From the NCBI GenBank assembly GCA_000004695.1, contig CM000151.3, positions 160,001-224,000 on the forward strand: 64,000 nt of DNA, read 5' to 3'. Source of the stretch: Dictyostelium discoideum. Lineage: Eukaryota. This document shows, in pieces, positions 16,177-39,668 of this stretch (positions are counted from its first letter, which is position 1; the number at the start of each line of letters is the position of its first letter). Below the pieces are notes generated by a model that saw nothing but the letters and a program-made list of their open reading frames with translations, had not been told where the DNA came from and did no database searches. Both the position numbers and the translations under genes were made by a program.

Positions 16177-18123
16177 CTCTTCATCATCTTCTTCATCTTC
16201 ATCGTCTGAATTTTCTTTTGATTGTTTTAATTCTTCAGGTGAAATTGGTTTAAATTCATCATCATCTTCATTATCTTCGTCATCATCACCATTACCATCT
16301 AAACCATTAAATAATTCATCAGTTGGTGCTTTAATCATTGTAAGAATATGTTCGAGTACTTGGAAAGAGATATTATCAGCAAAGATTGAAAATATTTGTT
16401 TAATAATTGTACGTAAGATATGAATTGGTTTATCTAATAATGAGATTAAAACATCTAAAAGTACCATAAATGGTTGAGGTTTATCTTGTTCTGGTGCTGA
16501 TCTTTTTTTAGTTGTTGATTTTTGTGGTGGTTGTGGATTTGTTAATTCTTCAAAAGCAGATGTTAAATCTTCAATAATTTCAGAGATTTCTTGTGCATCA
16601 GTAAGATAATGTAATGAAACATGAACGAATAATAATTCAAAGCCAACCAATTGATTTAATCTTTTTTCAGCAGATTTTTGTTTTAATTGAATTGATTGAA
16701 CGATTTTCATAATTCTATCAATTGGTTTAATACCCATTGGTAAAAAGGTTGACAATTGTGGTCTATCTGAATCGGTTGAACCTTTTTTTAATAAATCGTA
16801 TTGGAAACTTGCCATTTTAGAAGCCCAGAATTCACCATTACTCATTGTACCTTCATATGATGTAGTTTGTTGTTTAGTTGATTCTAAAGTAAGGTATGAA
16901 AGTTCCTCTAAAACTGAACAAAATCTAATGAAACATTGATCTCTAATTGATTGAGAAATCTCTGATTTTGGTTTACTTGTGAATAATTCTTCTGTAAAAG
17001 TTTTAACTGGAGCAGCAACGACAGCAGCAGTAACTTTCTTTTTACCTTTAGTAACTGGAGTGGCGGTAGCAACGGCAGCAACTGGTTTTGATTCACATGT
17101 TAAATAATAAGAATGGAAATAAAGGAATTGTAATAATTCTAATAACATTGGCTCTAATTTAATTAAACTTTCAGTTGGACGTTTAACTAAATCTTTTGAA
17201 ATGTGACCGATTTGACTTAAAATCCAATGTCTAGATGAATCAATATATTTCTCTGATTTCTCTTCATTATTCATTTCATCAATTACCATATCATCTTCAT
17301 CTTCATTATTACTATTATTATTACTATTATCATTTGATGATGATGATGATGAAGAAACTACATTAATAAATAATTTATATAATGAATTTAAATAAATTTT
17401 AATTGAATCTTCATCTAAATCTTTAACTAATTCATTAATTACATCGACTGAAATTGATTGTTCGAATTTTTGTTTTTGTTGTTGTTGATTTTGTGGATTT
17501 TGGTTATGATGATGTGAATTATTTGAAAAGAATAAAATTAATGCTAAACGATGTTGTGATGAAATCTCTGCTGTTCTTGGAATTGATTGGAATGCTAATG
17601 AACCAACTTCATGTAATGGACTAGTTGGTTTTAATGATTCACTTAAATTTGCAATAACATTTTCACTAAAAATATCATTAATAATATCTGGATGTACTAA
17701 TGGTAATAACATTTCAAATAATTGTAATCCTAAATATCTCTTATTCATTGATGTTGTTTTAAATAAATTATCTTTTAAAAAAAAAAAAGAATTAATAAAT
17801 TTAATTATAAGAAAAAATAATAATAAATAAATAAATAAATAAAAAATTAACAAACTTACCTTCAACTATTAATTTCCAAAATTCTAATAATGTTGCATTT
17901 TCTTCATGATCAGCCAATAAAATTTCAAATGTAATTCTCCAAACTTTATGAATTCTTGGATGAGATTTACAAGATTCACTAAAAATATTTTTTAATAAAC
18001 TTAAATTTGAAATATTTAAAATACTTGGATGTTTCCAACCAACAGTTTGTTTAATTAAATTGAATTTCTAAAAAAATAAAAAAAAATAAAAAAAAGAATT
18101 AATAAATATTATTATTATTATTA

Positions 18124-19518: not shown

Positions 19519-20598
19519 TTATTCATCAGATTTAATTATTAAAGTTTCACCAATTTTACTAACACAAAATTCATTTTCTTTTAATCCAAGTTTTTGAGAT
19601 TCTTTAATTAGTAATTGTGGTGGTTCTAATATTGGTTCTGATGATAATAGATAAGTACCCCAATGAATACCAAAACTCTTTTTTGAGTTTAATTCTTTAT
19701 GAATTCTAACAGCTTCTTCAACATTGATATGACAAGATCTCATAAATTCTCTATTTAAATCGTATGCACCAATTGCAATTAAACTAAAATCAAATGGACC
19801 ATAATAATGAGAGATTTGTTTAAATAGTTGATCATGATCCGCTGTATCACCACTAAAATAAAATCTTTTATTCTTTCCAACCACACACCAACTACCCCAA
19901 AGATACTTATTACGATCAAACATACCTCTTTGTGATGAATGATTTGCTGGTGTATAAATTAATTTTAAACAATTATCATCATTATCATTATTTTTGGTAG
20001 TGGTAGTAGTATTTGTGGTAGTGTGGTGATAATGATTAATTTCATCCCACCAATTTAATTCAGTTACATTTTTAATTGAAGCAGATTGAAACCATACTTT
20101 TAAACCTTTTGGTACATAGAAATGACAATTTGGGAAAAGTTTTGAAATTTCAACAACTGCATCATAATCTAAATGATCGTAATGTGCATGACTAATGATT
20201 ACGAAATCTAATGTCGGTGGTAATTCTTTGATTGAACATGCTGGATCTCTGTATCTGTGTGGTCCAAATGGTAGATTTGGAATTGGTGTACATCTTTTAC
20301 TCCAAACTGGGTCAGTGATAAATGTAAATCCTTCCATTTGAATTAAACATGTTGAATGTCCAATCCAGGTCGACCTAATTGTAGTCTCTTTATCGTATTC
20401 TGAATTTATTAAATTAAAATCTGGTTTTAAAACTGGATGAATCTCTGTTTTTTCATATTCTGTTAATGGTAATATCTTTGGTCTTTTTGTTATATAATTC
20501 CATACATCTTTTGGTGATTTCTTTTCTTCATGATTAAAAAAATCTGAAAATGGGTTAATAAATCTACCATCTTCAAATATTGATAATGTTTTCTCCAT
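19519..20598 (-). CDS. N-acyl-phosphatidylethanolamine-hydrolysing phospholipase D (NAPE-PLD), metallo-beta-lactamase fold
   Basis: 359-aa single-exon ORF. WIGHSTCLIQMEGFTFITDP...LDFVIISHAHYDHLDYDAV...LWGSWCVVGKNKRFYFSGDT...FDFSLIAIGAY...VEEAVRIHKELNSKKSFGIHWGT aligns across the full length to mammalian NAPE-PLD, including the HxHxDH zinc motif. Confidence 0.85.
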   Translation of the reverse strand: MEKTLSIFEDGRFINPFSDFFNHEEKKSPKDVWNYITKRPKILPLTEYEKTEIHPVLKPDFNLINSEYDKETTIRSTWIGHSTCLIQMEGFTFITDPVWSKRCTPIPNLPFGPHRYRDPACSIKELPPTLDFVIISHAHYDHLDYDAVVEISKLFPNCHFYVPKGLKVWFQSASIKNVTELNWWDEINHYHHTTTNTTTTTKNNDNDDNCLKLIYTPANHSSQRGMFDRNKYLWGSWCVVGKNKRFYFSGDTADHDQLFKQISHYYGPFDFSLIAIGAYDLNREFMRSCHINVEEAVRIHKELNSKKSFGIHWGTYLLSSEPILEPPQLLIKESQKLGLKENEFCVSKIGETLIIKSDE

Positions 20599-21274
20599 AA
20601 TTAATTAAATAAATAAATAAATATTATGTTAAAAATTTATTTTTGTTATTGTTATTGTTTTTAAAAAATTAAAATTAAAATTAAAATTAAAAAAAAAAAA
20701 TAAATTAAAAAAAAAAAAAAAAAAAATAAAAAATAAAAAAAAAAAAAAAAAAAAAAATTAGATTTGAGATTTGAAATGAATTGCGTGTCTTTTTATTTGT
20801 CGACATAAATTAAATTTTTCAAAAAAAAAAAAAAAAAAAAAAAAGAATTATGTCATCAAAAATAACACCCACTTGTTATTATTATTTTAAAAAAAAAAAA
20901 AAAGAGAGAAAAAAAAGAAATAATTTGTTTATATCTTCTTACATTTTTTGAATTTACAAAAGGGTGCACTATACTTTTTGAAATTTTTTTTTTTGAAAAA
21001 TTTTTTAAAAAATTTGTCAATGTTGCTATTTTTAAAAGTCGATCCATTGCCAAAGATATTTTTAATCCCCAAAAAAAAAAGTTTTTTCTGCCTTGATAGG
21101 AGGTTTTAAAAAATAAAATAAAAACAATTTTTTTTTTTTTTTTTTTCCACAAAAAAACATAAAAAAAAAAAAAAATAAAAAAAAAAAAATAAAAAAAAAA
21201 AAAAATAAAAAAATTGAGAATTATTTACCACCGATAAAAATAAAAAATAAAAAAAATAAAAATAAAAAAAAAAT

Positions 21275-21835
21275 ATGGTGGAAATTAAAATTAGAAATGT
21301 GAATGAAAATGATATAAAAGAGATTACAAATATTTATAAACATTATGTTTTAAATGAAGTTTGTACATTTGAAGAAGAGGTACCAAGTGAAGAAGAGATG
21401 AATAAAAGAAGGTCAATTATTGTTGATAAGAATTTCCCTTACATTGTTGCAACAACAACTACAACCACAACAACAATAATAAAGGATGGAGCAAATGATA
21501 TCACTAAAGAAATTGTTATCGGATATGCATATGCATCATCATTTAGACCAAGAGCAGCATACAGATTCACAGTTGAGGATAGTATTTATATTGATATTAA
21601 TTATCAAAAGTTAGGTGTTGGTTCAATATTATTAAAAGAATTAATTTCACAATGTAAAGAAAAAGGTTTTAAAGAAATTATTGCAGTCATTGCTGCTGGT
21701 GGACCAAACCAAGTTGGCGGTTCCTCAATTAAATTACATAAAAAATTTGGTTTCGATAATCAACACACTTTAAAGAATGTTGGTTACAAATTTAATCAAT
21801 TTTTAGATACTGTTTCACTTCAATTATCATTATAA
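21275..21835 (+). CDS. GNAT-family N-acetyltransferase (phosphinothricin/L-amino-acid acetyltransferase-like)
   Basis: 186-aa ORF. IRNVNENDIKEITNIYKHYV...VGYAYASSFRPRAAYRFTVEDSIYIDINYQKLGVGSILLKELI...GFKEIIAVIA is a typical acetyl-CoA binding core (Q/RxxGxG/A). A poly-Thr insertion is present. Confidence 0.75.
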   Translation: MVEIKIRNVNENDIKEITNIYKHYVLNEVCTFEEEVPSEEEMNKRRSIIVDKNFPYIVATTTTTTTTIIKDGANDITKEIVIGYAYASSFRPRAAYRFTVEDSIYIDINYQKLGVGSILLKELISQCKEKGFKEIIAVIAAGGPNQVGGSSIKLHKKFGFDNQHTLKNVGYKFNQFLDTVSLQLSL

Positions 21836-22139
21836 TTTATAAAAAAATAATTAAAATAATAAAATTTTAAAAAAAAAAACTTTTTTTTTTTGTGAACAAG
21901 CACTTTGGCAAAAAAAAAAAAAAAAAAAAAAAATTTGACCCATAAACCCACACAAACACTAAAATCAAAAAAAAAAAAAAAAGATATAATTTTTATTTTT
22001 ATTTATTTATTTATTATTTTTTATTTTATTACTATTAAAAAAATGGAATTATTTTTTTAAAGTATGGAATGATATATATTTAAAACAATTAACATGTTGA
22101 ATTATTTAATTTATATAATGAAATTATAATTGAAAGTAG

Positions 22140-23107
22140 AAATGAATTATTAAATTTTATAAATAAAGAATATGTTAATTCAATTATATATTGTGGTAGA
22201 GGGAAATTATTTAAAATTGATTTCTTTGGGTATAATAATTAGAGAATATTCAATATAAATCAATTAATAATCAAGTACCAAATGGAATCAAACAATTAAT
22301 ATTACCAACTCATGATAATTTTAATTATAATTTATCATTATTACCAATTCAATTACATCAATAATAAATTTAAATTTATATCCAAATATCAATAATTATC
22401 AATAATAATAAAAATAATTTACTTTCAATTCCAAATAATATTAAGTCATTAGTTATTTTTGATAATAAAGTTTATAATAGCTATAATTATAATAATAATA
22501 ATAATAATAGTGAATTAAATTTAATAAATTTAATAAAATATAATTGTAATTTAGAATTTATTAAAGTAACTAATTCATATGGTTATTTTAGAGAATTACA
22601 AGTTAATGATTTTACAATGTTTTATAAAATTAAAAGTATTGAATATACCATATTTATTTATTGTGATACTAGTGAAAATCATTCAAATAGATTCAATAGG
22701 TTTACCAAATTCAGTTACAGATTTAAACCTCTTTTCATTAATAACTTTAAATGTATGTAAAGTATTATTAATTGATAATAAAGCACCATCTTCAATTTCA
22801 ATATCATCTGAAATCTCTAAAATTTCTAATGATTTTGGTAAACTACCATTATTATTTTTAATTCTAATTGGTTCACCAATTAACCTTACCATTTAATACT
22901 ATTTGGAAATAATGGTGATTCATCACCACCACCACCACCACCACCACCAACACCAATATAATTATATTCATAATAATCTTCTTTTATTATATAATTAATC
23001 ATATTTTTACAATCAATTGATAATTTATTAATTGATGATGGTATTGAAAATTCTTCAAACATTCCATAATAAATTTTATTATTATTATTTCTACTACTAT
23101 AAAACAC
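22140..23107. pseudogene. degenerate FNIP-repeat-like coding remnants on both strands
   Basis: Plus-strand frames give IPNGIKQLILPTHDNFNYNLSLLPIQLHQ* (22240-22365) and ...LSIPNNIKSLVIFDNKVYNS...CNLEFIKVTNSYGYFRELQ... (22390-22760) with no start codon and with stops. Minus ORFs 22683..22892 (GSLPKSLEILEISDDIEIEDG) and 22886..23107 (PLFPNSIKW) are FNIP-like and in different frames. Confidence 0.3.
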
Positions 23108-23148
23108 TTAAAAAATCATTACCAACATCATTAAAAAGAATTATAATT

Positions 23149-23211
<63 letters not shown>

Positions 23212-23397
23212 TCAAGATCTTTTATAGTTGATAATTCAAATTTTAAAAGAATAATTAAACAATTAGAACGACTTCCAAATTCAATAAGAATAATAAATAA
23301 AAATAATTAATTTTTTTTTATTTTAAACAAATAATAAAAGATAGGTGTCCCATACCCAATTTAATCAAAAATTTATAAGAAAAAATTAAAAAAATTA

Positions 23398-23439
<42 letters not shown>

Positions 23440-23659
23440 AAATTTTATTTTTTATTTTTTTTATTTTTTTTTTTATTTTTTTTAAATTAAAAAAAGGCAA
23501 CTTCACAAAATTTTTTTTTTTTTTTTTTTTTTTTAATTTTTTAATTTTTTTTTTTAATATTTTCACATTTATATATACATCAACTTCTACTTTTTTTTTA
23601 AATTTTCAAAAAAAAAAACAAAAAAGTAAACAAATAAAAAAACAAATAAACAAAAAAAT

Positions 23660-25473
23660 ATGGTAAAGGTAAATGTTAAATGGAATAAAGAGAAATATGA
23701 AGTTGATGTTGACCCATCAGAACCAGTTTCAAGTTTTAAAGGTCAATTATATTCATTAACTATGGTTCCAATAGAAAGACAAAAAAGTAATATTTAAATA
23801 TATATATATATTTTTACTGTTGATAATTTAAAGCTAATTTTTTTTTTTTTTGTGTATTAATAAAATAAAGTTATGGGATTTAAAGGTGGAATTTTAAAAG
23901 ATGATGCACAATGGAAAGATTTAGATTTAACAGAAGGAAAGAATTTAATGTTAATGGGATCAGCAGTAGAATTAGAGAAACCAGATAAACCAATTGTATT
24001 CCTTGAAGATTTACCACCAAGTAAAGCTGCAGCACTTAATAGTTTATTACCAGCTGGTTTAACTAATCTTGGTAATACTTGTTATTTAAATTCAACTTTA
24101 CAATGTTTAAAAACTGTACCTGAATTATTAACAATTATTAAAAAGTAAGTTTTTTTAAATAAATACATAAATCAATTAAAAATTATAATAATTTATTAAT
24201 ATATTTATTATTATTTATTATTATTTTTACTATTTTTTTAGTTATAAACCAAAAACAAATTCAAGATATTCAAATTTATTAAAAAGTTCACAAGGTTTAT
24301 TTAATGATTTATCAAGATTACATGAACCAGTAACACCATCAGTATTTTTGAATACATTTAGAATGTGTTTCCCAAGATTTTCAGAAAAGAGTCCAGAAGG
24401 ATTATATATGCAACAAGATGCAGAGGAGGCTTGGGGTGAATTATTAACAGCCTATGCTCACGAGTTACCATTGGATAATGCAAATGGCACTGATTCACAT
24501 TCTGCCGATTTGATAAAGAGATCAATGATTGGTAAATTGTTTGGTATTCAAGTGGTTGAGAAATTCACTTGTAAAGATAATCCAGAGGAAGAACCAACCA
24601 CTAGAGAGGAAACACTTTTAAAATTAGCATGTAATATCACCGTTGAAACAAGTTACCTTTTCGATGGTCTTAAAAAAGGTTTAGAAGAAGAGATTTCAAA
24701 AGCTTCACCAACACTTCACAAAGATGCAATCTATACAAAGAAAACTTTAATTAAACAATTACCAAAATATATTATGGTTCAATTTGTTAGATTCCATTGG
24801 AAAGATGCAACAAAAACAAAATCAAAAATTGTTAGAGTAATGTTATTTTTCATTTTTATTTTTATTTTTATTTTAATATAACAAGTTTATTAATTTTTTA
24901 TATTAATTCTAATTTTTATTACTATTATAGGTTGTACAATTCCCATTTACTTTAGATTTATTCGATTTATGTACACCAGAATATAAAGAAAGATTATCAC
25001 CAAATAGAAAGAGAGTGGAAGATGAATTTAATGCATCACTTGAAAGAAAGAGAAAAGTTATTGGTGGTAGTGGTGATGGTAATGATGAAGATGATAAACA
25101 AGTTGAAAAGAAAGCAGCAGTTAATAATGATAATCAACCACAATCTTCAACTTCTTCAAATGATTCAGTTTCTACTACAGGGGCTGCTGTTGATGATGAT
25201 GTCTTTTTCAAAGAGAATGAAACTGGTAAATATGAATTATGTGCTGTTTTAACTCATCAAGGTAGATATGCTGAATCTGGTCATTATGTTGCTTGGGTTA
25301 AGAAATCTGAAAATAAATGGTATAAATTTGATGATCGTGATGTCACAGAACATACAGATGAAGATATTAAAAAACTTTCAGGTGGTGGTGATTTCCATAT
25401 TTGTTATTTAGCACTTTATAGAACTCTTACCGTAAAACCAAAATCTTCTTCAACAATTACTGAACAAAAATAA
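23660..25473 (+). CDS. ubiquitin carboxyl-terminal hydrolase 14 (USP14/Ubp6) homolog with N-terminal ubiquitin-like domain
   Basis: Four-exon model join(23660..23786,23871..24144,24242..24836,24931..25473). Donors are GTAATA, GTAAGT and GTAATG. Exon 1 MVKVNVKWNKEKYEVDVDPSEPVSSFKGQLYSLTMVPIERQK is the UBL domain. Then ...GLTNLGNTCYLNSTLQCL (Cys box), ...GLYMQQDAEEAW, ...IMVQFVRFHWK, ...AVLTHQGRYAESGHYVAWVK...FDDRDV...LSGGGDFHICYLALY (His box), collinear with human USP14. Confidence 0.85.
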
Positions 25474-25500
25474 AATAAAATTTTTAAAAAGTTCATATTA

Positions 25501-25562
<62 letters not shown>

Positions 25563-25586
25563 TATAATACAATACAATTTATAGTA

Positions 25587-26735
25587 ATTTACATATGGTT
25601 TCAATTGGCTTTTATATTTATTAAATAAGTAATTTATAATATCTTGATAATCTGAATAATCTTTGTATACAATTATACCAAACCATTCAACCATATTAGA
25701 TGCTAATGGTTTGACATATCCATAGGATCCATTGATTATTATATTTTCATGTCCACCATCATCATTAGCATCCTCTTGTTCATATTGTTGTAATAAATTA
25801 TCTAATTTAATAAATGATTCTAAATCAAATGTTTTAATTATTAATTTCAATAGTTGGTGTTTTAAAAATGGTTTTTTGATTTTATTTTTCTTTCTAAATT
25901 TTAATTCAATTTCAAAATAATGTAAAAATAAATTAACTCTTGGATTATTATAATCTAACATTTTGGATACTTGGATATTAAAGTTATCTTTTACAATGTC
26001 CATGATTGTTGAATCGATAAATTGATTTAAATCTTTATTATTTCTATCAGTAAATATATATTCGAATGTATATACTGATTTATCTATATGATATTTCAAG
26101 AATGGTCTTTCTCTTTCAAAACCACCCGTGGGATCCTCAATAACGATTACACATGATCCGATGATTGGTGAAAAAGTTTTTAAATAATAGTATGAAGTGT
26201 ATTCTGAACTCTTTATTTTGATATAATTTGATATTAATTGATGAGCTGTTTTAATTTGGTCAATTGTTAAATTATTGACTCTAATTAACTTTAAATAAAA
26301 GAAATTTAATATCAATGATAAATTTGATAATGATAATTGACCATCTTTGAATCTATCAATTAAAAACTGAATAATATCAATTAAATCTTTATATAAATTT
26401 TTGCATGTATAGATTCTATTATGAAAACGATCTTTAAATGCTTTTTCATGTAATTTTAAATCTTTACCATTTAAATTATCAAGAATAAATTGTACACCTT
26501 CAAAATTTAAAAGTTCAATAAATGTTTGAAATAAATAAGAGGTTACATTTGGAAAGTTATTGAAATTTACTTTAATTTTAGTGAGATTGATTATTTGACA
26601 TGTTTGTTGAGTTGGTATTTTATATTGTTTGAATTTTTCATTTTCATGATAACCTGCCGAATCGTCCCAAATCTCCCCTTCTATAGAGTATGAGTTAATA
26701 AAAAACCGTCTTAAATTGTAATTAAATATTTTCAT
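25587..26735 (-). CDS. hypothetical protein, downstream (C-terminal) ORF segment; 3' end uncertain
   Basis: The ORF listed as 25416..26735 reads through an A56 tract (25501-25556) as poly-Phe, which is implausible. A GTAAAT donor follows ...KSQLKPY at about 25586, so I end the confident part there. No recognisable domain. Confidence 0.4.
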
Positions 26736-26737
26736 TA

Positions 26738-27490
26738 CTAAAACCCCCCACCACTATAGTCCAACAATAACTCATCAATAGAATCACAAATTAATCTTAG
26801 GTATTTAATTGAATTTTTTGAACCAAATTGAATAATTTGAATCATATAATATTTAAATAAATCTTCATTATCATTAAAGTTTGATTGGTTTAAACGATTG
26901 ATTAATGATACAATATCATCATGAGTACGTAAAATGTGAATATTACACAACTGTTTATTTGAATCTAAAATTGGAATTACTCGTTTAAATTTGATTCTTG
27001 CATATTCTAATAATTCTGATGTACTAAAATCAAGTTTCATTTGATTTAATTTTGAATTTAAAGCATTTCTTATTTTTAAAATACTACAACCACCTGTTTC
27101 GATATCTGATAACCAATCGATTGTTTCTTTATCTTTAATTGTAACAATCATATCATTATCAATTAGATTTGATGTAATTTCTTTCCATTTCGATAATAGA
27201 ATTAATTGAAATTGTTTTTCATGCAAATCGATAAGTTCCTTTGTTGATATTACATCATCTAATGGTTTTTCTTCAATATCCTCTATAATGATTGATTTTT
27301 GTGTGGAATAGATTTTATAGAACATAATAATATTGTTATTATCTATTTGATAACTTTTGAATAAAGTGTTGAGATATATTTCACCAATATAGTCCAAATC
27401 TGATTTTGTTATATTGATTTTTACATGTTTTTTCAATAGAAACTTTAATATATTGGTGCTATAGGTTTTTGCCATAAAATATATTAACAA
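26738..27490 (-). CDS. hypothetical protein, upstream ORF segment; separated from the 25587..26735 ORF by a single-base frame offset at a G6 tract
   Basis: 250-aa ORF ending ...LLDYSGGGF*. The stop TAG is at 26738-26740 and the ATG of the next ORF at 26733-26735. One extra G in the G6 run (plus-strand cccccc, 26744-26749) would fuse both into one ~690-aa protein. The open frame also extends about 70 codons upstream of the listed start. Confidence 0.4.
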   Translation of the reverse strand: MLIYFMAKTYSTNILKFLLKKHVKINITKSDLDYIGEIYLNTLFKSYQIDNNNIIMFYKIYSTQKSIIIEDIEEKPLDDVISTKELIDLHEKQFQLILLSKWKEITSNLIDNDMIVTIKDKETIDWLSDIETGGCSILKIRNALNSKLNQMKLDFSTSELLEYARIKFKRVIPILDSNKQLCNIHILRTHDDIVSLINRLNQSNFNDNEDLFKYYMIQIIQFGSKNSIKYLRLICDSIDELLLDYSGGGF

Positions 27491-28684
27491 TGGTTTAATT
27501 TTTTCACAGAGTCGAATGGTATCAATTAGTTCATTATATTCTTTTAAATACCATGCATATAAAACAATAGATTTAGTTTCATTAATTAATAGTTGAAATA
27601 AATTAAATTCTGAACCATAATCAGAAATGAATTGTGAACTATTTAATATACTTGAAAAATAATTTTCATGAAAAAATGCTTTACTAAAAAACCTGAAAAC
27701 AATATACCATCAATATTAATAAATTTAGATAAACCAATTGAATCAGACCTTTTCTTTTTATTTTAAAATTTAAAAATGATCCAGGCTTATTTTTTTATCT
27801 GGAAAAATGCTATTGAATTCCGAAAATGCAATACTAAAATCTATACTGGGGTCACTGCTTAAAAAACTTGTTTAAAATTTGAATAATAAATATGAAATCC
27901 ATTTAAATATCCAGAGTGTTCAACTAATATATTTAAATATGTATCATAATTTGTCATTTCAAATCAACAATTATTAAATTTTTTTTTTTAATGGTGTGGA
28001 GTATGTGGATGAATAAAGATAAAATCCAAATCTTTTTGTTGAATTTGAAAATATACATTTATAAAATTCTATTTTTGTTTCCCCAATTTCCTTATTTTCT
28101 GTGCCAAGTAATGTTTTATCAAAGTTTATAAAGTTAATATTTGTTGCTTTTAAATATGTTTATATAAAAGTTTGAAAAATGAGAAATCTTCCAAATCACA
28201 TCCATCAAAGAATACTTTTTTAGAATAATTGGAATATGTTGTAATTGTTAAGTTTTAATATTGTAAAATTTTATTGGAAACACATTCAGGTTGGTTGGAA
28301 ATATAGTTGTAATATAATCTATGGGAATTTTATCTGATTAATTAAATAGAAAAAATGGGAAAATATCTTTCATTTCACTAACAATATCTTTTTAAAAAAA
28401 AAAAAAAATTGGATAAAATTTTAAAAAAAATAGATTTCCATTTGGATAATTAAAAAAAAAATATTGGATAAAGATAATCAAAAAAGACACTTTTTATCCT
28501 ATAGTGGATAAAGGTAAAACACTAATTTTTTAAAAAAAAAAAAAATTGTTTCTATCCAACTGCCCCTCCCCCCTTTTTTTAAATTTTTTTTTTACTAAAA
28601 ACAAAATAATCCATATTAAAATAAACTAATTTTATTTTTTTTTGTTTTTTTTACTATAAAGTAAAGGATATTTTATTTTTAATA

Positions 28685-28894
28685 TCAACAGTAATTTGCA
28701 AATAGTGAAACAAACATCGAATTAAAACTTTCTGGCATTTCTTTCCAATCTCTTTTTGCATTCATGAATGCATTGTTAACAGCAGAACAATCTTGGCTAC
28801 TAATTTTGCAAACCCCACCATTGGCTTCATTAATTTCACCCAACACAAAAGAAAGAGTAATAATAAGTAAAATAAAAATAATAATTTTATTCAT
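28685..28894 (-). CDS. small secreted cysteine-containing peptide (69 aa), paralog A
   Basis: MNKIIIFILLIITLSFVLGE signal peptide plus a 49-aa mature peptide with 3 Cys. It is nearly identical to the ORF at 32510..32719, and flanking non-coding DNA is also duplicated. Confidence 0.55.
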   Translation of the reverse strand: MNKIIIFILLIITLSFVLGEINEANGGVCKISSQDCSAVNNAFMNAKRDWKEMPESFNSMFVSLFANYC

Positions 28895-29219
28895 TTCTTT
28901 ATTTTTAATTTTAGTTTTTTTTTTTTTTTAAAAAAAATATTTTTTTTTTTTTCTTTTTTTGAATGATTTTTAAAAATAAAATTATTTATTTAACCTTTTT
29001 ATAACTTTTTTTTTTTTTTTACCAATATTATTAAAAAAAAAATAATTACCATAACAAATAATTACTATTTTAAATTTCCATTTAAAATATTATAAAATAT
29101 TAATATAAATTTGTATTTGCCATCTTTTAAAATAAAACTATGTTATTACATGAAATTGTTTTTTTTTATTTTTTTTATTTTCTTTATAGTCATCAAATAT
29201 AGTTAAATACAAATTTAAA

Positions 29220-29251
<32 letters not shown>

Positions 29252-30326
29252 CATATGAACCTTTTTGTTTTTTTTTATTATAATAATTATTTGTGATATG
29301 GTAATTTTTGGAATTAAAAAAATTAAAAAAAAAATAACAAAAAATTAATAAAATTTAAAATAGATTAATCATGAATAGATAAATAAATAAACAAAAAAAA
29401 TGTTTTAAAAAGAAGAAATTTAGTGAATATCGTTTTCTAAGACTTTTTTTATACCAAAGATTTTAAATCCACCATCTTCATATTTTTCAATACCATTTTT
29501 GCAGTATTTAAAAAACATTAATATTTACTTATTTTATTTTATCTTTTTTATTTATATATAAAATATCGTAAATTAATTATTTATATTTTTATTTCATTTT
29601 ATTTTATTTTCTTTTTTATTTTAATTTTATTTTTTATTTTTTTTTTTAAATTTAATTTCCCTGTGAAATTTTAAAAATTACAACGAAATAATGAAAAAAT
29701 TAAAAATAATAATCTCCCCAGATCAGAAAAATCTATTAACAATTATTGTGAGATTTTCAAAAAAATATTAATGAAAAAAATTACTTGGTGGTAATTAATC
29801 ATAATTTCTATATTGAGATAGAGATTTTTTTTTTTTTTTTTTTTTTTTTCAAAATTACCCTATCATCCATTGTTTTTTTTTTTTTTTTAAAATAAAGTAT
29901 TTAAAATCCCACAATAAACAAAAATTTTTTTTTTTTTTTTTTCATTTTAAATATGATTTTGTTGTGAAATTTTTTTTTTTTTTTTTTTGTATTATTATAA
30001 AATTAATCAAATCAAAAAAAAAAAAATATGTCCATCTTGAATTTCTCTTTTTATTTTTACATATTAAAATTTTTTTTTCAAGAGTTAAATAATTTTTTAA
30101 GATACCAAAATTGGGGTTTAAAAGGGATTTTTTTTTTATTTTTTATTTGACCCATTACTTTTATTTTTTTTTATTTTAAATTTAATAATCATTGTCATTC
30201 TAATAAAATTAAAAAAAAATATTAAAAAAAAAATTAAAAAAAAAAATTTAAAAAACCAATCATTTTTTTTTTTTTTATCATTTTTCTCATTTTTTTTTCA
30301 ATATCATTTTAATAATAAAAAAACAG

Positions 30327-31266
30327 ATGGATCACATTCTTAAAGATAATAATAATATTAATAAAAATAATAAAGATAATGAAATATTATTTTTTAAAGT
30401 TTTTAGAAACCATTTTATATTTAATGAAATATTTAAACATGTTAGGCTATATGATTTACATGAATCAAAAGCTTATAGTATAAATTTAAAGGATTCTAAA
30501 TATAAAGATTATATTAAATATATATTTGATTTTAATTTTTCAATTAAAAATCAAAATATTTTAACAAATTTTAAAGAATTAATTAAATTAAAATTTAATA
30601 AAGATTTTAATAAGAAATTAAAAGCAAATTCAATACCAAATACAATTAAAATAATTATATTTAATAAAAATTATAAACAACCTATTGATTTAGGTATTTT
30701 ACCATCAAGTTTAGAATATTTAAGTTTTCATAGTTTTTATAATGATTCAAATTTTACAATAACAAGAAATTTATTACCAAATTCAATAACAACATTAATA
30801 TTCGATAATGATGAGCATAATGGATATGATGCATATAGAAATGATAGTGGTTGTTTTATAGATTTAAACATTGGAGGGATTTTACCAAATTCATTAACAA
30901 AATTAAATTTACCAAATAATTTTAATACGAAATTAAATTTCAAATCATTACCAAATTCAATTACAAGTTTAAAATTTGGTCTTTATAACGAACCATTAGA
31001 AGACAATGTTTTACCTGATAATTTGGTTGAATTAACAATGGTTTGTTTTAATAGAGATTTCCACGAAAATACATTTACAAATTGTAAACAAATTAATAAA
31101 TTAATTTTATATAAATTTAATCAAAAAATAAGTGGTACGAATTTACTACCAAAAAGTTTAACACATTTAGAATTACTATTTTTTAACCAACCAATAATGG
31201 ATACTACAAATAATAGTTTATTACCAAATAATTTAAAATATTTAGATATTACATATTATAATATTG

Positions 31267-31324
<58 letters not shown>

Positions 31325-32051
31325 TAATAATGGTTCATTATTTTTACCAAATTCCATTGAAACTTTAATCATCAATAAAATAAATTTATTTCCATCATTT
31401 CCTAATTCATTAACTTCTTTAGCAATGTCATATGAAAACAAAGGTTATATTTTTAAATTATTAAGCCTTTTACAAGATATTAATTTAAACAAATGTGTTT
31501 TCATTAAATATAAGCAATATATATACCCAAATTCTAATTTGGTAAGTCTTGTTTTTCATCCATCTAAAATAATTATGGAAAAAGAAAAAGAAAATGAAAA
31601 TGAAAATGAAAATGATGAATTTTTCAACCAAAAAAATATTAAAATAGTAGAAATAAAACAAAAAAATTTTAATTGGTCAAATTTACTAGAATTTAGATAT
31701 TTAAAAGAACTAATATTTGATAAAAATTCAACTTTTAATAAAAATTTAATTAAAGGAATTTTACCAGATTCTTTAGAAAGATTGGAGTTTGGAAAACATT
31801 GGAATAATGGTGATAATAAAAATGAAATAAATTTTTATGGAAAAGAGCTTAAAGTTGGTATATTCCCAAATCAAATTAAGTTTTTAAAATTTGGTAAATT
31901 ATTCTATAAATCTATTAAATTAGAGGCATTACCAACATCTTTAATTAAACTTTGTTTACCAAAGAAATCATTACTTTTATTGCCTAAAAATTACATTTTA
32001 AAATTCAAAATATCTTTATTAAAAAAAAAAAATATATATATTAAATATTAA
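30327..32051 (+). CDS. FNIP-repeat-containing protein
   Basis: 574-aa single ORF with more than 10 tandem ~22-aa FNIP units (ILPSSLEYLSFHSFYND, LLPNSITTLIFDNDEHNG, ILPNSLTKLNLPNNFN, SLPNSITSLKFGLYNEPL, LLPKSLTHLELLFFNQPI, LLPNNLKYLDI...). It also has an (AAT)24 poly-Asn tract. FNIP repeats are a dictyostelid-specific family. Confidence 0.8.
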
Positions 32052-32509
32052 TTAGTAAAAATAATATAAAAAAAAAAATAAAAAAAATAAAAAAAATAGA
32101 AACCAATGATTAAAAACCAATTGGTTTATTTAAATAACTATAAATTCTATTATTCTATACTATAATTTTGTTAATTTTTAAAAATTTTATTTGTTTTGTT
32201 TAAAAAAAAAAAAATTGTTTCTATCTAAAAATAAAAAAATAAAAAAAAAAAAACCGAAAGGTTTAAATGATTTTTTTTATATTTTAATAACTTTTGTATT
32301 TTAAGGGTCTAATTTATCTTATCAAAATCCAAATAAAAAATAATAAAAAATAAGTTGAAAAAAAAAAAATAATAGTGTGTGAAAAAAAGCCCTTTTTTTA
32401 AAATTTTTTTTTTTTCCAAAAACAAAAATAAGACATATTAAAATAAACTAATTTTTTTTTTTATTTTGTTTTTTTTACTATAATGTAAAGGATATTTTAT
32501 TTTTTAATA

Positions 32510-32719
32510 TCAACAGTAATTTGCAAATAGTGAAACAAACATCGAATTAAAACTTTCTGGCATTTCTTTCCAATCTCTTTTTGCATTCATGAATGCATTG
32601 TAAACAGCAGAACAATCTTGGATATCAATTTTGCAAACCCCGCCATTGGCTTCATTAATTTCACCCAACACAAAAGAAAGAGTAATAATAAGTAAAATAA
32701 AAATAATAATTTTATTCAT
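32510..32719 (-). CDS. small secreted cysteine-containing peptide (69 aa), paralog B
   Basis: Identical to paralog A except CKISSQDCSAVNNAF became CKIDIQDCSAVYNAF, four nucleotide changes that are all nonsynonymous. Same orientation, 3825 bp downstream. Confidence 0.55.
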   Translation of the reverse strand: MNKIIIFILLIITLSFVLGEINEANGGVCKIDIQDCSAVYNAFMNAKRDWKEMPESFNSMFVSLFANYC

Positions 32720-33218
32720 TTCTTTATTTTTAATTTGAGTTTTTTTTTTTTTTTTTTAAAAAAAATATATTTTTTTTTTGTTTTTTTAAATGATTTTTAA
32801 AAATAAAATAATTTATTTAACCTTTTATATTACTTTTTTGAAAAAAAAAAAAAAAAAATAAATAATTATGTTACCATAACAAAGATTTACTATTTTAAAT
32901 TTATAATTAAAATATTATAAAATATTAGAAATTTAAAATAGTAAATATTTGTTAGATTTTTATTTGCCATCTTTTAAATCTTTTGTTTTTAAATCTTTTT
33001 TTTTTTTTTTTATAGCCAACAAATAAAATCATGACATTACATGAAATTGTTTTTTTTTTTTTTTCTTTATAGTCAACAAATTCTTAAACAAAAAAAAAAC
33101 ATGTGAGAATCTTTTTGTTTTTTTCATTATCACAATTATTAATATAAAGGTGCAACAAATATTCTTAAAAAAAAAAAAAAAAATTTAATTCGATAAATTC
33201 TCTTATAAATAAATTTTA

Positions 33219-36196
<2,978 letters not shown>

Positions 36197-36706
36197 TTTC
36201 TTTTTTTTTTTTTTTATTCAATAAATAAAAAACTATCTTTTTAGAATTAAACCTTAAAAAAAAAAAAAAAAGAAAAATAGAAAATTAAATAATAAAAAAA
36301 AAATAAAAATAGAAAATGGAAAAATAAAATAAAAATAAAAAAATAAAAAATATATAAAAATATAAAAATATAAAAATAAAAAAATAAAAAATAGTGATGG
36401 ATTTTTTAAGTTGGGAAAAAAAAAAAAAAAAAGTAAATTATTGAGAGGTTTTTTTTTATTTTTAAAAAAACAGGTTAAAAAATCCGAGTAAAATATCTCA
36501 TTTTTTTGAATTTTCACACAAAAAAAAAAAGATCTTTGCAGAATGGAATCACTTTTTTTTTTTTTTTTACCAAAATTTCAGAATTGTTATTTTTTTTTAT
36601 TTTTATTTTTTTATTTTTATATTTTTAAATTTTTAAATTTTCATTTTATATTTTTATTTTTAATTTTATTTTAGTATTATATTTTAAAATATTAATAACT
36701 TTTAAA

Positions 36707-37668
36707 ATGAAATATAATGCAAACACCTCTAACCAATTTAGGGCTATGGTAAATTTTTTTTTTTTTTTTTATTTTTTTTTTATTTTTTTTTTTTTTTAAA
36801 ACTAACTTATTTATTATTATTATTTATTTATTTATTTAATAGTTTTTTAAAAATGCAACATTTTTAAAAAGACAAAAATGTTCTTTAGGTGTTCAAATTG
36901 CTATTCCAATGGCATTAGTAATTGTTTTAGTTATTCTTAAACTTTGGATTGAAAGTCAAATTGAAAACAATAGTGGTCCAGTAGGTGATAGTAGTGGTGA
37001 TGATATTATGGGTTCATATATTAGTTATAAATTTGATTATATGCAAGGTTGGTTTTATACTATAAATCCAAATAATATAACTAATATTGGTTATAAAGAT
37101 GGTTATGGAAATGGAACAGGTTTGTTGGGAGGTATTAATCAATATGAAATATATTGGAATGGTAGTGATCTTTGGGTACCATATACAGTTGCAGTAGAAT
37201 CAGGTCAAAAAATGAATGATATGGTTTTAGCTCAAAAACAACAACTTGGTCAAAGTTCAATGGGTCCACTTACATTCCCAATTGCAGGTATTCAATTCAA
37301 CGAATTCAACCCACAAAATAATTTAATTGATCTTACAATAACATGTGAACAACAAATTAGATATGCCTATAACAATTTTGAAAATAATTTAATTTATGTT
37401 TTATCTCAAATTCAAACATCATTCATTAATTACCTTTTAAATGGAAATGGAGTTGTAGTTAAAACTCAAATTAGCACGTTACCATATATTTATAAAAGTC
37501 AACAATTTGATATTGCTTCACTTTTAGGTGGTTCATTCTTTCCATTTGCTCTATCTTTTGTTTTACCATTATTTATGTATTCAATTGTTTATGAAAAACA
37601 AGAAAAATTAAGAGATTTATCATTAATGGTAATTTATTTATTTATTTAAAAAAGATAAATATACATAA

Positions 37669-37710
<42 letters not shown>

Positions 37711-39668
37711 ATTTAGATGGGATTAAAAATGAGAAATTATTGGATTATGACATTTATTTTTAACTTTTTAACATATGTTGTAATTGTATCTGTTATAAGT
37801 TTAATTTGTTCAGCTGCAAAAGTATCATTATTTGTTAAAGGATCACCATTCGCTTTATTTTTATTATTATTTTTGTGGGGTTTATCAATGGTTTCATTTG
37901 CATTCTTTTTATCAACATTTTTTAAAAGAACTCGTGCCGCTTCAATTTTTGGTTACTTTTTTGTAATGGTTATGGTTAATTTAAATTCAACTTTATCACT
38001 CTTTAATACTTCAGTACCTGTATTTGTATGTATTAATTATAAATAATAATAATAATATTTAAAATTAAAATTAAAATTTTATAATAACATTTTTTTTATT
38101 TTATTATTTTTTTATAAAATAGTATTATTGGGTACCAATTTTAGCATTTAGTAGAGGTATTTCAACTTTATGTGGTTTATGTGGTAATGGATTATGTCCA
38201 CCATTATCACAATATACATGGGATTTTGAACTATCAAGAATTCTTTTTTGGTTATTCATTGATACAATTGTATATTTAACTTTAGCAGTTTATTTAGATA
38301 AAGTTTTACCTCGTGAATTTGGTGTACCAAGTCATCCATTATTTTTTATTAAAGATTTAAAGGAATTATTCTCAAAAAAAGGAAAGTATAGAAAATTACG
38401 TGATGGTGATGGAATTAATGAAAAAACAAAATTAATTAATGAATATACTATTGATGGTATTAATAATGATGATGATGATGATGGATTAATGGATGAAGAT
38501 GTAAAGAAAGAAAGGGATATGATTGTAAAAGGTGAATATAATCCAGAGGAAATGACATTAATAGTTCAAGGTTTAAGAAAACAATTTCCAGGTAGACCAA
38601 AACCAGCGTTAAGTAATCTTTATTTATCCGTTAAAAAAGGTGAAGTACTTGGTTACTTGGGTCCAAACGGTGCTGGTAAAACAACATCAATTAGTATTCT
38701 CACTGGTCTTTATACACCAACATCTGGTACTGCCCATATTGCAGGTTTAGATATTCGTTATGATATGGATAAAATTCATCAAGTAATTGGTGTAGTAATG
38801 CAATTCGATGTCTTATGGGAAGATCTCACCTGTGAAGAAACCATTCTTTATTATACTCGTCTAAAAGGTACACCAAAATCAATCGAATTTGAATCTACTC
38901 ATAATATTTTAAAAGAAGTTAATTTATTAGATGTTAAAGATAGATTTGTAAAAGAATTAAGTGGTGGTATGAAAAGAAGATTATCATTCGCTATCGCTAT
39001 GACTGGTGAATCTTCAATTATTTTCCTTGATGGTATGTATAATAAATTAATTAATTAATTTCAAAAATATATAAAAATAAACAATTACTAATACTAATAA
39101 AAATTTAATTAGAACCAACCACTGGACTATCAATTGAAACTAGAAAAGATTTATGGGGTACAATTAATGAATTAAAAAAGAATAGATCAATTATCCTTAC
39201 TACTCATTCTATGCAAGAGGTATTTATTTATATAACACACATATTAATTTTATTTAATCATAACATATAATTAATCTTATTTTTTTTTATTTATTTAAAT
39301 AGGCTGATATTTTAAGTGACCGTATTGCAATAGTTTCACAAGGTAAATTACAATGTATTGGTACTCAAACTCATTTAAAACAAAAGTTTGGTGATGGGTA
39401 TAGTGTTAGAATTGATATTCAAGAGGATTATCAAAATACTCATAATCCAACAGATTTAATTAAAAGTTTTTCGCCAAGCGCAACACTCTCTGAAACATTT
39501 AATGGAAGTTATGTTTATCGTTTACCAAAGGATTCAATCATTTCAGATCTTTACGAATATTTAGTTTTAAATAAAGAACAATATCATTTACAGGAATGGA
39601 GTTTAAGTCAAACAAGTTTAGAAGATGTTTTCCTTAAAATTTCTGCGAATGATGATACTGTAAATTAA
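36707..39668 (+). CDS. ABC transporter, ABCA-subfamily half transporter (paralog, divergently oriented)
   Basis: Six-exon model join(36707..36748,36843..37628,37717..38025,38123..39032,39113..39219,39303..39668), 839 aa. Donors are GTAAAT, GTAATT, GTATGT, GTATGT and GTATTT. N-terminus MKYNANTSNQFRAM|FFKNATFLKRQKCSLGVQIAIPMALVIVLVIL. NBD has GPNGAGKTTSISILTG, LSGGMKRRLSFAIA, IIFLDG|EPTTGLS, ILTTHSMQE|ADILSDRIAIV. The C-terminus ...EWSLSQTSLEDVFLKIS matches the ABCA consensus. Confidence 0.85.

Follow-up and report, generated by a model that had tools for sequence, protein, structure and literature searches.

An unannotated second copy of a gene for a putative secreted three-cysteine mini-protein on chromosome 2 of Dictyostelium discoideum

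Two intact copies and their single-copy counterparts

The DNA analysed here is a 64,000-nucleotide stretch of Dictyostelium discoideum AX4 chromosome 2 (assembly GCA_000004695.1; positions 160,001 to 224,000 of contig CM000151.3, itself 8,484,197 bp), referred to as the window; it has 21% G+C and contains poly-Asn tracts. As the initial annotation had described, it carries two intact 69-codon open reading frames (ORFs) on the minus strand, offset by exactly 3825 bp, with an FNIP-repeat ORF (30327..32051, plus strand) between them. We call the two ORFs copy A and copy B.

28685..28894, minus strand: copy A, 69-codon ORF plus stop; product MNKIIIFILLIITLSFVLG/EINEANGGVCKISSQDCSAVNNAFMNAKRDWKEMPESFNSMFVSLFANYC by ORF translation, the slash marking the predicted signal-peptide cleavage site
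32510..32719, minus strand: copy B, 69-codon ORF plus stop; exact match to DDB_G0271260 (XP_645691, Q55BC1)

The copy B product is identical to DDB_G0271260, a hypothetical protein of AX4 chromosome 2. The exact protein encoded by copy A had no match in a collection of 15 billion proteins or in public protein sets. In the D. discoideum reference genome, DDB_G0271260 has an intact second copy that is unannotated, and the proposed tandem-like duplication of a mini-protein gene with a signal peptide and three cysteines is genuine. A third copy was sought within the window and none was found. Expected tryptic peptides of the mini-protein product are ISSQDCSAVNNAFMNAK and IDIQDCSAVYNAFMNAK.

Syntenic loci (20 kb) were fetched from three related assemblies via orthologues of the neighbouring GNAT gene: GCA_054859385.1 (L002), GCA_054859205.1 (L003, "D. 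cf. discoideum") and GCA_054859355.1 (L004). Each locus contains exactly one family gene of 69 codons, beside an FNIP gene and in the position of copy B. The start, the stop and all 69 codons are kept in the four genomes, which, together with a between-lineage ratio of nonsynonymous to synonymous substitution (dN/dS) of 0.09-0.35, indicates a real coding gene. Homology between these loci and the window ends at 25489-25525 and restarts at 29324 (L004), 29406 (L002) or about 30159 (L003). Because homology stops and resumes around it, AX4 has an extra segment of about 3.8 kb that includes copy A.

25526..29323, no strand assigned: AX4-specific segment of about 3.8 kb with copy A and two further ORFs (described below), absent from L002, L003 and L004

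Copies A and B share three derived states in the coding sequence (CDS) relative to the three outgroup loci: GGG at codon 27, T at the third base of codon 32 and AAA (Lys) at codon 51. No CDS site supports any alternative grouping, and the two copies are therefore each other's closest relatives. A first count of flanking sites (7 sites) had grouped copy B with L002, a signal that was lost under strict column filtering (1:1:1), so no conflict between CDS and flank phylogenies is claimed. No tRNA gene, which would have hinted at the involvement of a TRE-type transposon, was found nearby.

Across window positions 20000-36350, the three comparison genomes, which carry the labels D. discoideum or D. 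cf. discoideum, share only 90-97.6% identity with AX4. Synonymous divergence of the small gene between them and AX4 is 0.08-0.27, which we take to be far above reported within-species diversity, and L002, L003 and L004 may represent cryptic sibling lineages.

Predicted protein

Both copies encode a precursor with a predicted signal peptide, consisting of the n-region MNK, a hydrophobic core of 15 residues, V at position -3 and G at position -1. By the -3/-1 rule, and given a G-E pair that is invariant across the family, cleavage is predicted between G19 and E20.

28838..28894, minus strand: signal-peptide part of copy A, codons 1-19, from family alignments and a predicted helix at residues 3-21
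32663-32719, minus strand: signal-peptide part of copy B, same as that of copy A

The mature peptide was initially described as about 49 residues long, net basic and containing three cysteines. The cysteine count holds; the length is 50 residues and the peptide is acidic, with a net charge of -2 for copy A and -3 for copy B and isoelectric points of 4.66 and 4.44, respectively. Its comparison to antimicrobial peptides consequently fails on the criterion of net positive charge. In the AlphaFold2 prediction a disordered N-terminus precedes two helices (residues 33-49 and 55-68) that form a hairpin; the model of the mature peptide alone has a mean predicted local distance difference test (pLDDT) score of 82.5, with values of 88-92 over residues 30-69. 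The three cysteines, C29, C36 and the C-terminal C69, are invariant. In the predicted hairpin the start of helix 1, with C29 and C36, lies adjacent to the end of helix 2, with C69, and this proximity suggests one intramolecular disulfide and one spare cysteine. Residues 32, 33, 36 and 40 fall within a 100-degree arc of the predicted helix and would form one face.

A Pfam scan of both copies and one paralogue returned no family above its cut-off. The best match of a sequence profile search against the PDB had E=0.12 and was to membrane helices, and a Foldseek search of the PDB with the mature-only model gave 0 matches.

A dictyostelid gene family

The mini-protein had been described as without a known homolog; it in fact belongs to a small, dictyostelid-only family, with five genes in AX4 and two, arranged in tandem, in D. 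firmibasis. Copy A shares 96% identity with DDB_G0271260, 81% with DDB_G0293422 and 31-42% with the other members. DDB_G0293422 (81% identity) lies on chromosome 6, and DDB_G0269672 and DDB_G0269674 (41% and 31% identity) bear consecutive gene numbers on chromosome 1. The D. firmibasis members, RB653_007031 and RB653_007030, are arranged in tandem 725 bp apart. All named members are annotated as hypothetical proteins. Similarity extends over 100% of the length, with profile and phmmer E values of 7.6e-36 to 9.4e-23. A HMMER profile search of 1.84 billion representative proteins gave no match outside D. discoideum, and D. firmibasis was the sole other species matched in word-indexed profile searches of a 5.8-billion-protein collection. 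The family is uncharacterised and, by these searches, appears so far limited to the D. discoideum species group.

Members have in common a signal peptide, the G-E cleavage junction, a C-x6-C motif, an MP loop and a C-terminal cysteine. The invariant positions (G19-E20, C29, D35-C36, A42, M53-P54, F61, N67 and C69) are all present in both window copies. Position 32 is basic (K/R) in all other members and in the other lineages, and the two chromosome 2 copies alone have no basic residue there.

An older tandem pair is conserved between DDB_G0269672/DDB_G0269674 on D. discoideum chromosome 1 and the D. firmibasis locus (L001:10001-11181). The D. firmibasis pair adjoins a C2/WW-domain gene, and in the D. 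discoideum supplement DDB_G0269670 (C2/WW domain) stands just before DDB_G0269672. Since this second tandem pair is found in both species, tandem arrangement is recurrent in the family. A full-text literature search for the gene identifiers recovered one table entry only, and the supplement of a study of the bacterial response (PMC7078664) has no entry for the gene.

Expression

Published RNA-seq data place the family in the prestalk, stalk and cup lineage. DDB_G0271260 reaches 2167/2030/1736 transcripts per million (TPM) in cup cells and 2549/3049/3543 TPM in stalk cells, compared with 95/30/53 TPM in spores and 0.18/0.52 TPM in vegetative cells (Kin et al., 2018; PMC6198379 supplement); in stalk and cup cells few transcripts are more abundant. 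In the same data set DDB_G0269674 stands at 0 during 0-4 h, reaches 2250 at 16 h and is prestalk-enriched (3815 vs 85 in prespore cells), and DDB_G0293422 is cup-specific (588 vs 0.07 in vegetative cells) (PMC6198379). Table 3 of a study of Mef2A groups DDB_G0269672 and DDB_G0269674 with the "small proteins (prestalk specific)", and both have higher read counts in the mef2A- mutant, at 574 vs 77 for the former and 794 vs 51 for the latter (PMC3640940). Prestalk, stalk or cup expression is thus found for every member with expression data, namely DDB_G0271260 and three paralogues. The suspicion that neither ORF might be transcribed does not apply to the locus as a whole, the published values (PMC6198379) showing transcription at a very high level, at least for the two copies summed; quantification of DDB_G0271260 by RNA-seq may be confounded by the second copy.

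Extent of the duplication and differences between the copies

Similarity between the copies forms a core at 28571-29102 and 32390-32927, with 90.3% identity over 544 columns, accompanied by collinear patches on either side.

28526..29291, no strand assigned: duplicated block A, comprising 3' flank, CDS and promoter-proximal 5' flank; core 28571-29102, patches 28526-28556, 29130-29178 and 29238-29291
32194..33140, no strand assigned: duplicated block B; core 32390-32927, patches 32194-32225, 33021-33070 and 33086-33140

Block B is the longer because of insertions, including a local "tttatag(c/t)caacaaat" repeat of about 58 bp. The CDSs are identical at 205 of 210 positions (97.6%) without an indel. 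With 3 indels in each, the 114-bp 3' flank shows 93.0% identity and the 208-bp proximal 5' flank 86.6%; farther upstream the similarity becomes patchy and then falls to background (55%). The flanks are significantly more diverged than the CDS (35/315 vs 5/210 differences, p=0.00015). They had been described as more than 90% identical, indeed near-identical; their actual identity of 85-93% lies below that of the CDS, which is the reverse of a changed patch set within near-identical neutral flanks. Nor does a very recent duplication fit, as the flank divergence between copies A and B (about 9-15%) is at least as large as that between copy B and its positional orthologue in L002 (about 9%).

The upstream strings cited in the initial annotation do occur in both copies, at 29120-29198 and 32967-33081, with one mismatch. 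The local repeat of about 58 bp lies upstream of copy B at 32985-33081 ("tttatagccaacaaat" ... "tttatagtcaacaaat"), and its motif is single in copy A, at 29182-29198. The flanking string "acatgaaattgttttttt" is retained about 250-340 bp before the ATG of either copy and, judging from this conservation, may be a regulatory element. A C-rich element, ctgcccctcccccc (28562-28576), sits at the 3' boundary of duplicated block A and is unusual for DNA of 21% G+C. It is conserved in L002 at about 16640-16660 (CTACCCCTCCCCC) and reduced to "gccc" at copy B (32389-32392).

Within the CDS the copies differ almost solely by amino-acid changes in one short patch, as originally noticed, and the replacements SS to DI (codons 32-33) and N to Y (codon 40) are correct. 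The count needs revision: rather than four differences, all nonsynonymous and confined to 20 nt, there are five, four of them nonsynonymous and spanning 25 nt, and one synonymous (codon 26), all five spanning 41 nt.

28777: T in A, A in B; N40Y
28797: C in A, A in B; S33I
28800-28801: CT in A, TC in B; S32D
28817: A in A, G in B; Gly26, GGT/GGC, synonymous
28777..28817, minus strand: variable patch of copy A, codons 26-40, with GGT26, AGT32 (S), AGC33 (S) and AAC40 (N)
32602..32642, minus strand: variable patch of copy B, with GGC26, GAT32 (D), ATC33 (I) and TAC40 (Y)

All of the changes between the copies thus fall in codons 26-40, beside C36. Polarising the CDS against the three related loci identifies Y40N as derived in copy A. 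Derived in copy B are AGT>GAT (two steps) and AGC>ATC, giving D32 and I33 through 3 changes within 5 nt, and derived in both copies are R32S (AGA>AGT) and R51K.

By the Nei-Gojobori method, dN between the copies is 0.024 and dS 0.026 (4 nonsynonymous differences and 1 synonymous), for a dN/dS of 0.94. The ratio of 4 nonsynonymous to 1 synonymous differs significantly neither from the 13:16 among lineages (Fisher p=0.34) nor from neutrality (Fisher p=1.0). The suggested diversifying change is accordingly not borne out, since a dN/dS of 0.94 is indistinguishable from neutrality or from the among-lineage ratio. Clustering of the differences is nominally significant when five nucleotides within 41 are counted (p=0.005) or when four events are (p=0.024). 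Treating GAT-ATC as the product of a single multinucleotide mutation leaves three events in 41 nt and removes the significance of the clustering (p=0.097).

Interpretation

We consider it probable that copy A is a lineage-specific duplicate within an uncharacterised family of secreted mini-proteins, and that the two copies evolved under relaxed constraint with no need for demonstrated diversifying selection. Under this explanation copy A would be an extra copy of the AX4 lineage that arrived with the 3.8 kb or so that the three related genomes lack, relaxed constraint on a redundant pair would be the most economical account of the changes between A and B, and copy B would have undergone one multinucleotide mutation, AGT AGC to GAT ATC. 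The precursor would enter the endoplasmic reticulum via its 19-residue signal peptide and be cut after G19, releasing an acidic protein of 50 residues that, according to the AlphaFold model, would fold as a two-helix hairpin (residues 33-49 and 55-68). One disulfide would staple the C-terminus to the start of helix 1, leaving the third cysteine available for covalent dimerisation or to form cross-links with the cysteine-rich stalk or slime-sheath matrix. Published expression shows induction of the family during development in the prestalk, stalk and cup lineage.

Several points weigh against this explanation. Codon 32 took three successive nonsynonymous changes in the AX4 lineage (AGA>AGT>GAT), and the chance of at least 3 of 8 changes striking one codon is low (p=0.011); repeated hits at this codon together with a nonsynonymous excess would also be expected from adaptive change at one surface. 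The CDSs of A and B show 5 differences against about 10.9 expected from the flank ratios (Poisson p about 0.04), so that gene conversion may have played some part. The comparison assemblies are 3-10% diverged from AX4, and a gain in AX4 is preferred to loss elsewhere by parsimony only. Copy A has no gene model, and its reads may have been assigned to DDB_G0271260 or discarded. Finally, the disulfide pattern, the secretion and the matrix or dimer role are predictions from the precursor and its model.

Adaptive diversification is possible and unproven; it is not demonstrated on present evidence. In its specific form, new residues would have been favoured on the face of helix 1 around Cys36 (positions 32, 33 and 40) and would confer different partners or dimerisation specificity. 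The nonsynonymous character of 4 of the 5 differences, a dN/dS of 0.94 against 0.09-0.35 between lineages, the confinement of all differences to 41 nt and the common face of residues 32, 33, 36 and 40 point this way, as does position 32 itself, which is K or R elsewhere, S in A and D in B after its three substitutions. Yet dN/dS does not exceed 1 or depart significantly from the background, and there are 5 changes only, of which 3 within 5 nt may be one event, bringing the clustering to p=0.10; we regard positive selection as unlikely. Rather more doubtful is an old duplication whose CDS was homogenised by gene conversion, the patch at codons 26-40 being an unconverted island or a tract boundary. 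This would account for the high CDS identity beside the lower identity of the flanks, for a patch divergence (5/41, or 12%) equal to that of the flanks, for the CDS deficit just described and for A-B flanks of 84.5-86% identity against about 90.7% for B and L002, beside a CDS in which A and B are nearest neighbours through three shared derived sites. However, stronger conservation of the CDS than of the flanks needs no more than purifying selection, and the orthologous pair of copy B and L002 shows the same direction; the shared derived third position of codon 32 lies inside the supposedly unconverted patch; strictly aligned flank columns (1:1:1) do not contradict A and B as sisters; and the AT-rich homopolymer flanks align poorly. 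Some gene conversion is possible and weakly indicated.

Combining these elements, a new class of extracellular signalling or matrix-crosslinking mini-protein, adaptive divergence of A and B at the surface near Cys36 and CDS conversion that spared the patch, is in our view improbable. Were it true, position 32 would have passed from positive to neutral to negative, creating two proteins with distinct partners or dimer specificity, and CDS-limited gene conversion would have been held back in the patch by selection. An assembly artefact, a single locus having been entered twice with sequencing or collapse errors as the differences, is very unlikely because each copy has its own unique neighbours and dozens of substitutions and several indels separate the flanks. 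Such an error would make the copies identical across the whole unit, and they sit in distinct contexts, with the additional ORFs on one side and an ABC transporter gene on the other. The related assemblies are single-copy; no point in support of an artefact was found.

Comparison with known systems

Within D. discoideum, the hssA/2C/7E-related genes and the "57-59 aa" genes are likewise short, developmentally induced, prestalk-enriched, multi-copy and often clustered. The link to them is the co-listing of DDB_G0269672 and DDB_G0269674 in Table 3 of PMC3640940 and not a sequence comparison, and the "57-59 aa" group itself has no significant similarity to hssA (PMC3640940). Late nodulin/NCR peptides (PF07127) resemble the present family in combining a signal peptide with a short cysteine-containing mature peptide and in being lineage-restricted and tandemly amplified. 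PF07127 was among the two top-ranked Pfam matches for all three small proteins scanned, every match being weak; membership is rejected at 13.5-14.3 bits against a gathering cut-off of 30.4, and NCRs differ in having 4 or 6 cysteines and no helical hairpin. Alpha-hairpinins are plant peptides with two C-x3-C motifs. They and other disulfide-stapled hairpins share the two-helix hairpin whose ends, as predicted here, could be tied by a disulfide; the cysteine pattern of the present family, C-x6-C followed by a C-terminal cysteine, has three cysteines and not four in two C-x3-C motifs, which excludes membership. A saposin- or amoebapore-like identity was likewise rejected: such proteins have six conserved cysteines and four to five helices, compared with three cysteines and two predicted helices here, and the Pfam scan listed no saposin family even with the limit set at E<=1.

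The outcome is mainly one of annotation and natural history: a species-group-restricted family of putatively secreted, three-cysteine helical hairpins that has never been studied. As the locus is structurally variable among close relatives, in copy number and in the orientation of the FNIP gene, it can serve as a small, usable example for studying how genes arise and duplicate in social amoebae.

Neighbouring genes and structural variation

The FNIP-repeat gene between the copies lies outside the duplicated sequence.

30327..32051, plus strand: FNIP-repeat gene (PF05725, E=2.7e-44, 8 repeats)

The gene is present in the related genomes, and its orientation in L002 is the reverse of that in AX4, L003 and L004; the locus is a hotspot of structural variation. 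In L003 the small gene is followed by another FNIP gene (79% identity), and an FNIP fragment lies upstream in L004. The FNIP regions compared were window 29865-32052, L002:14185-16298, L003:19262-20552 and L004:13702-13974. The exact 574-residue product of the FNIP ORF had no match in the public protein collection.

The two further ORFs of the AX4-specific segment stand back to back on the minus strand at 25416-27490, encoding 250 residues (26738-27490) and 439 residues (25416-26735) in one frame, parted only by a stop codon at 26738-26740. Their last 36 or so codons extend into DNA that the other genomes also have, overlapping the 3' end of usp14. Neither ORF has a Pfam match or a counterpart in the three related loci, where tblastn matched only the last 26 codons. 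Their origin as a diverged FNIP copy, which would make a 3.8-kb tandem unit, was rejected on the lack of a Pfam hit and of any tblastn match of the unique part in the three loci. A pseudogene is one possibility for the pair, a lineage-specific insertion that carried copy A along another. DDB_G0271262, a retired identifier ("not in dictyBase") for which PMC6198379 gives stalk-specific expression at about 256 TPM, may correspond either to the FNIP ORF or to this pair.

Immediately downstream of copy B are two ABC-A-type transporter genes arranged head to head, at 33327-36800 (minus strand) and 36909-39058 (plus strand). Their domains, ABC2_membrane_3 and ABC_tran, are taken from the orthologous gene calls in L002 and L004.

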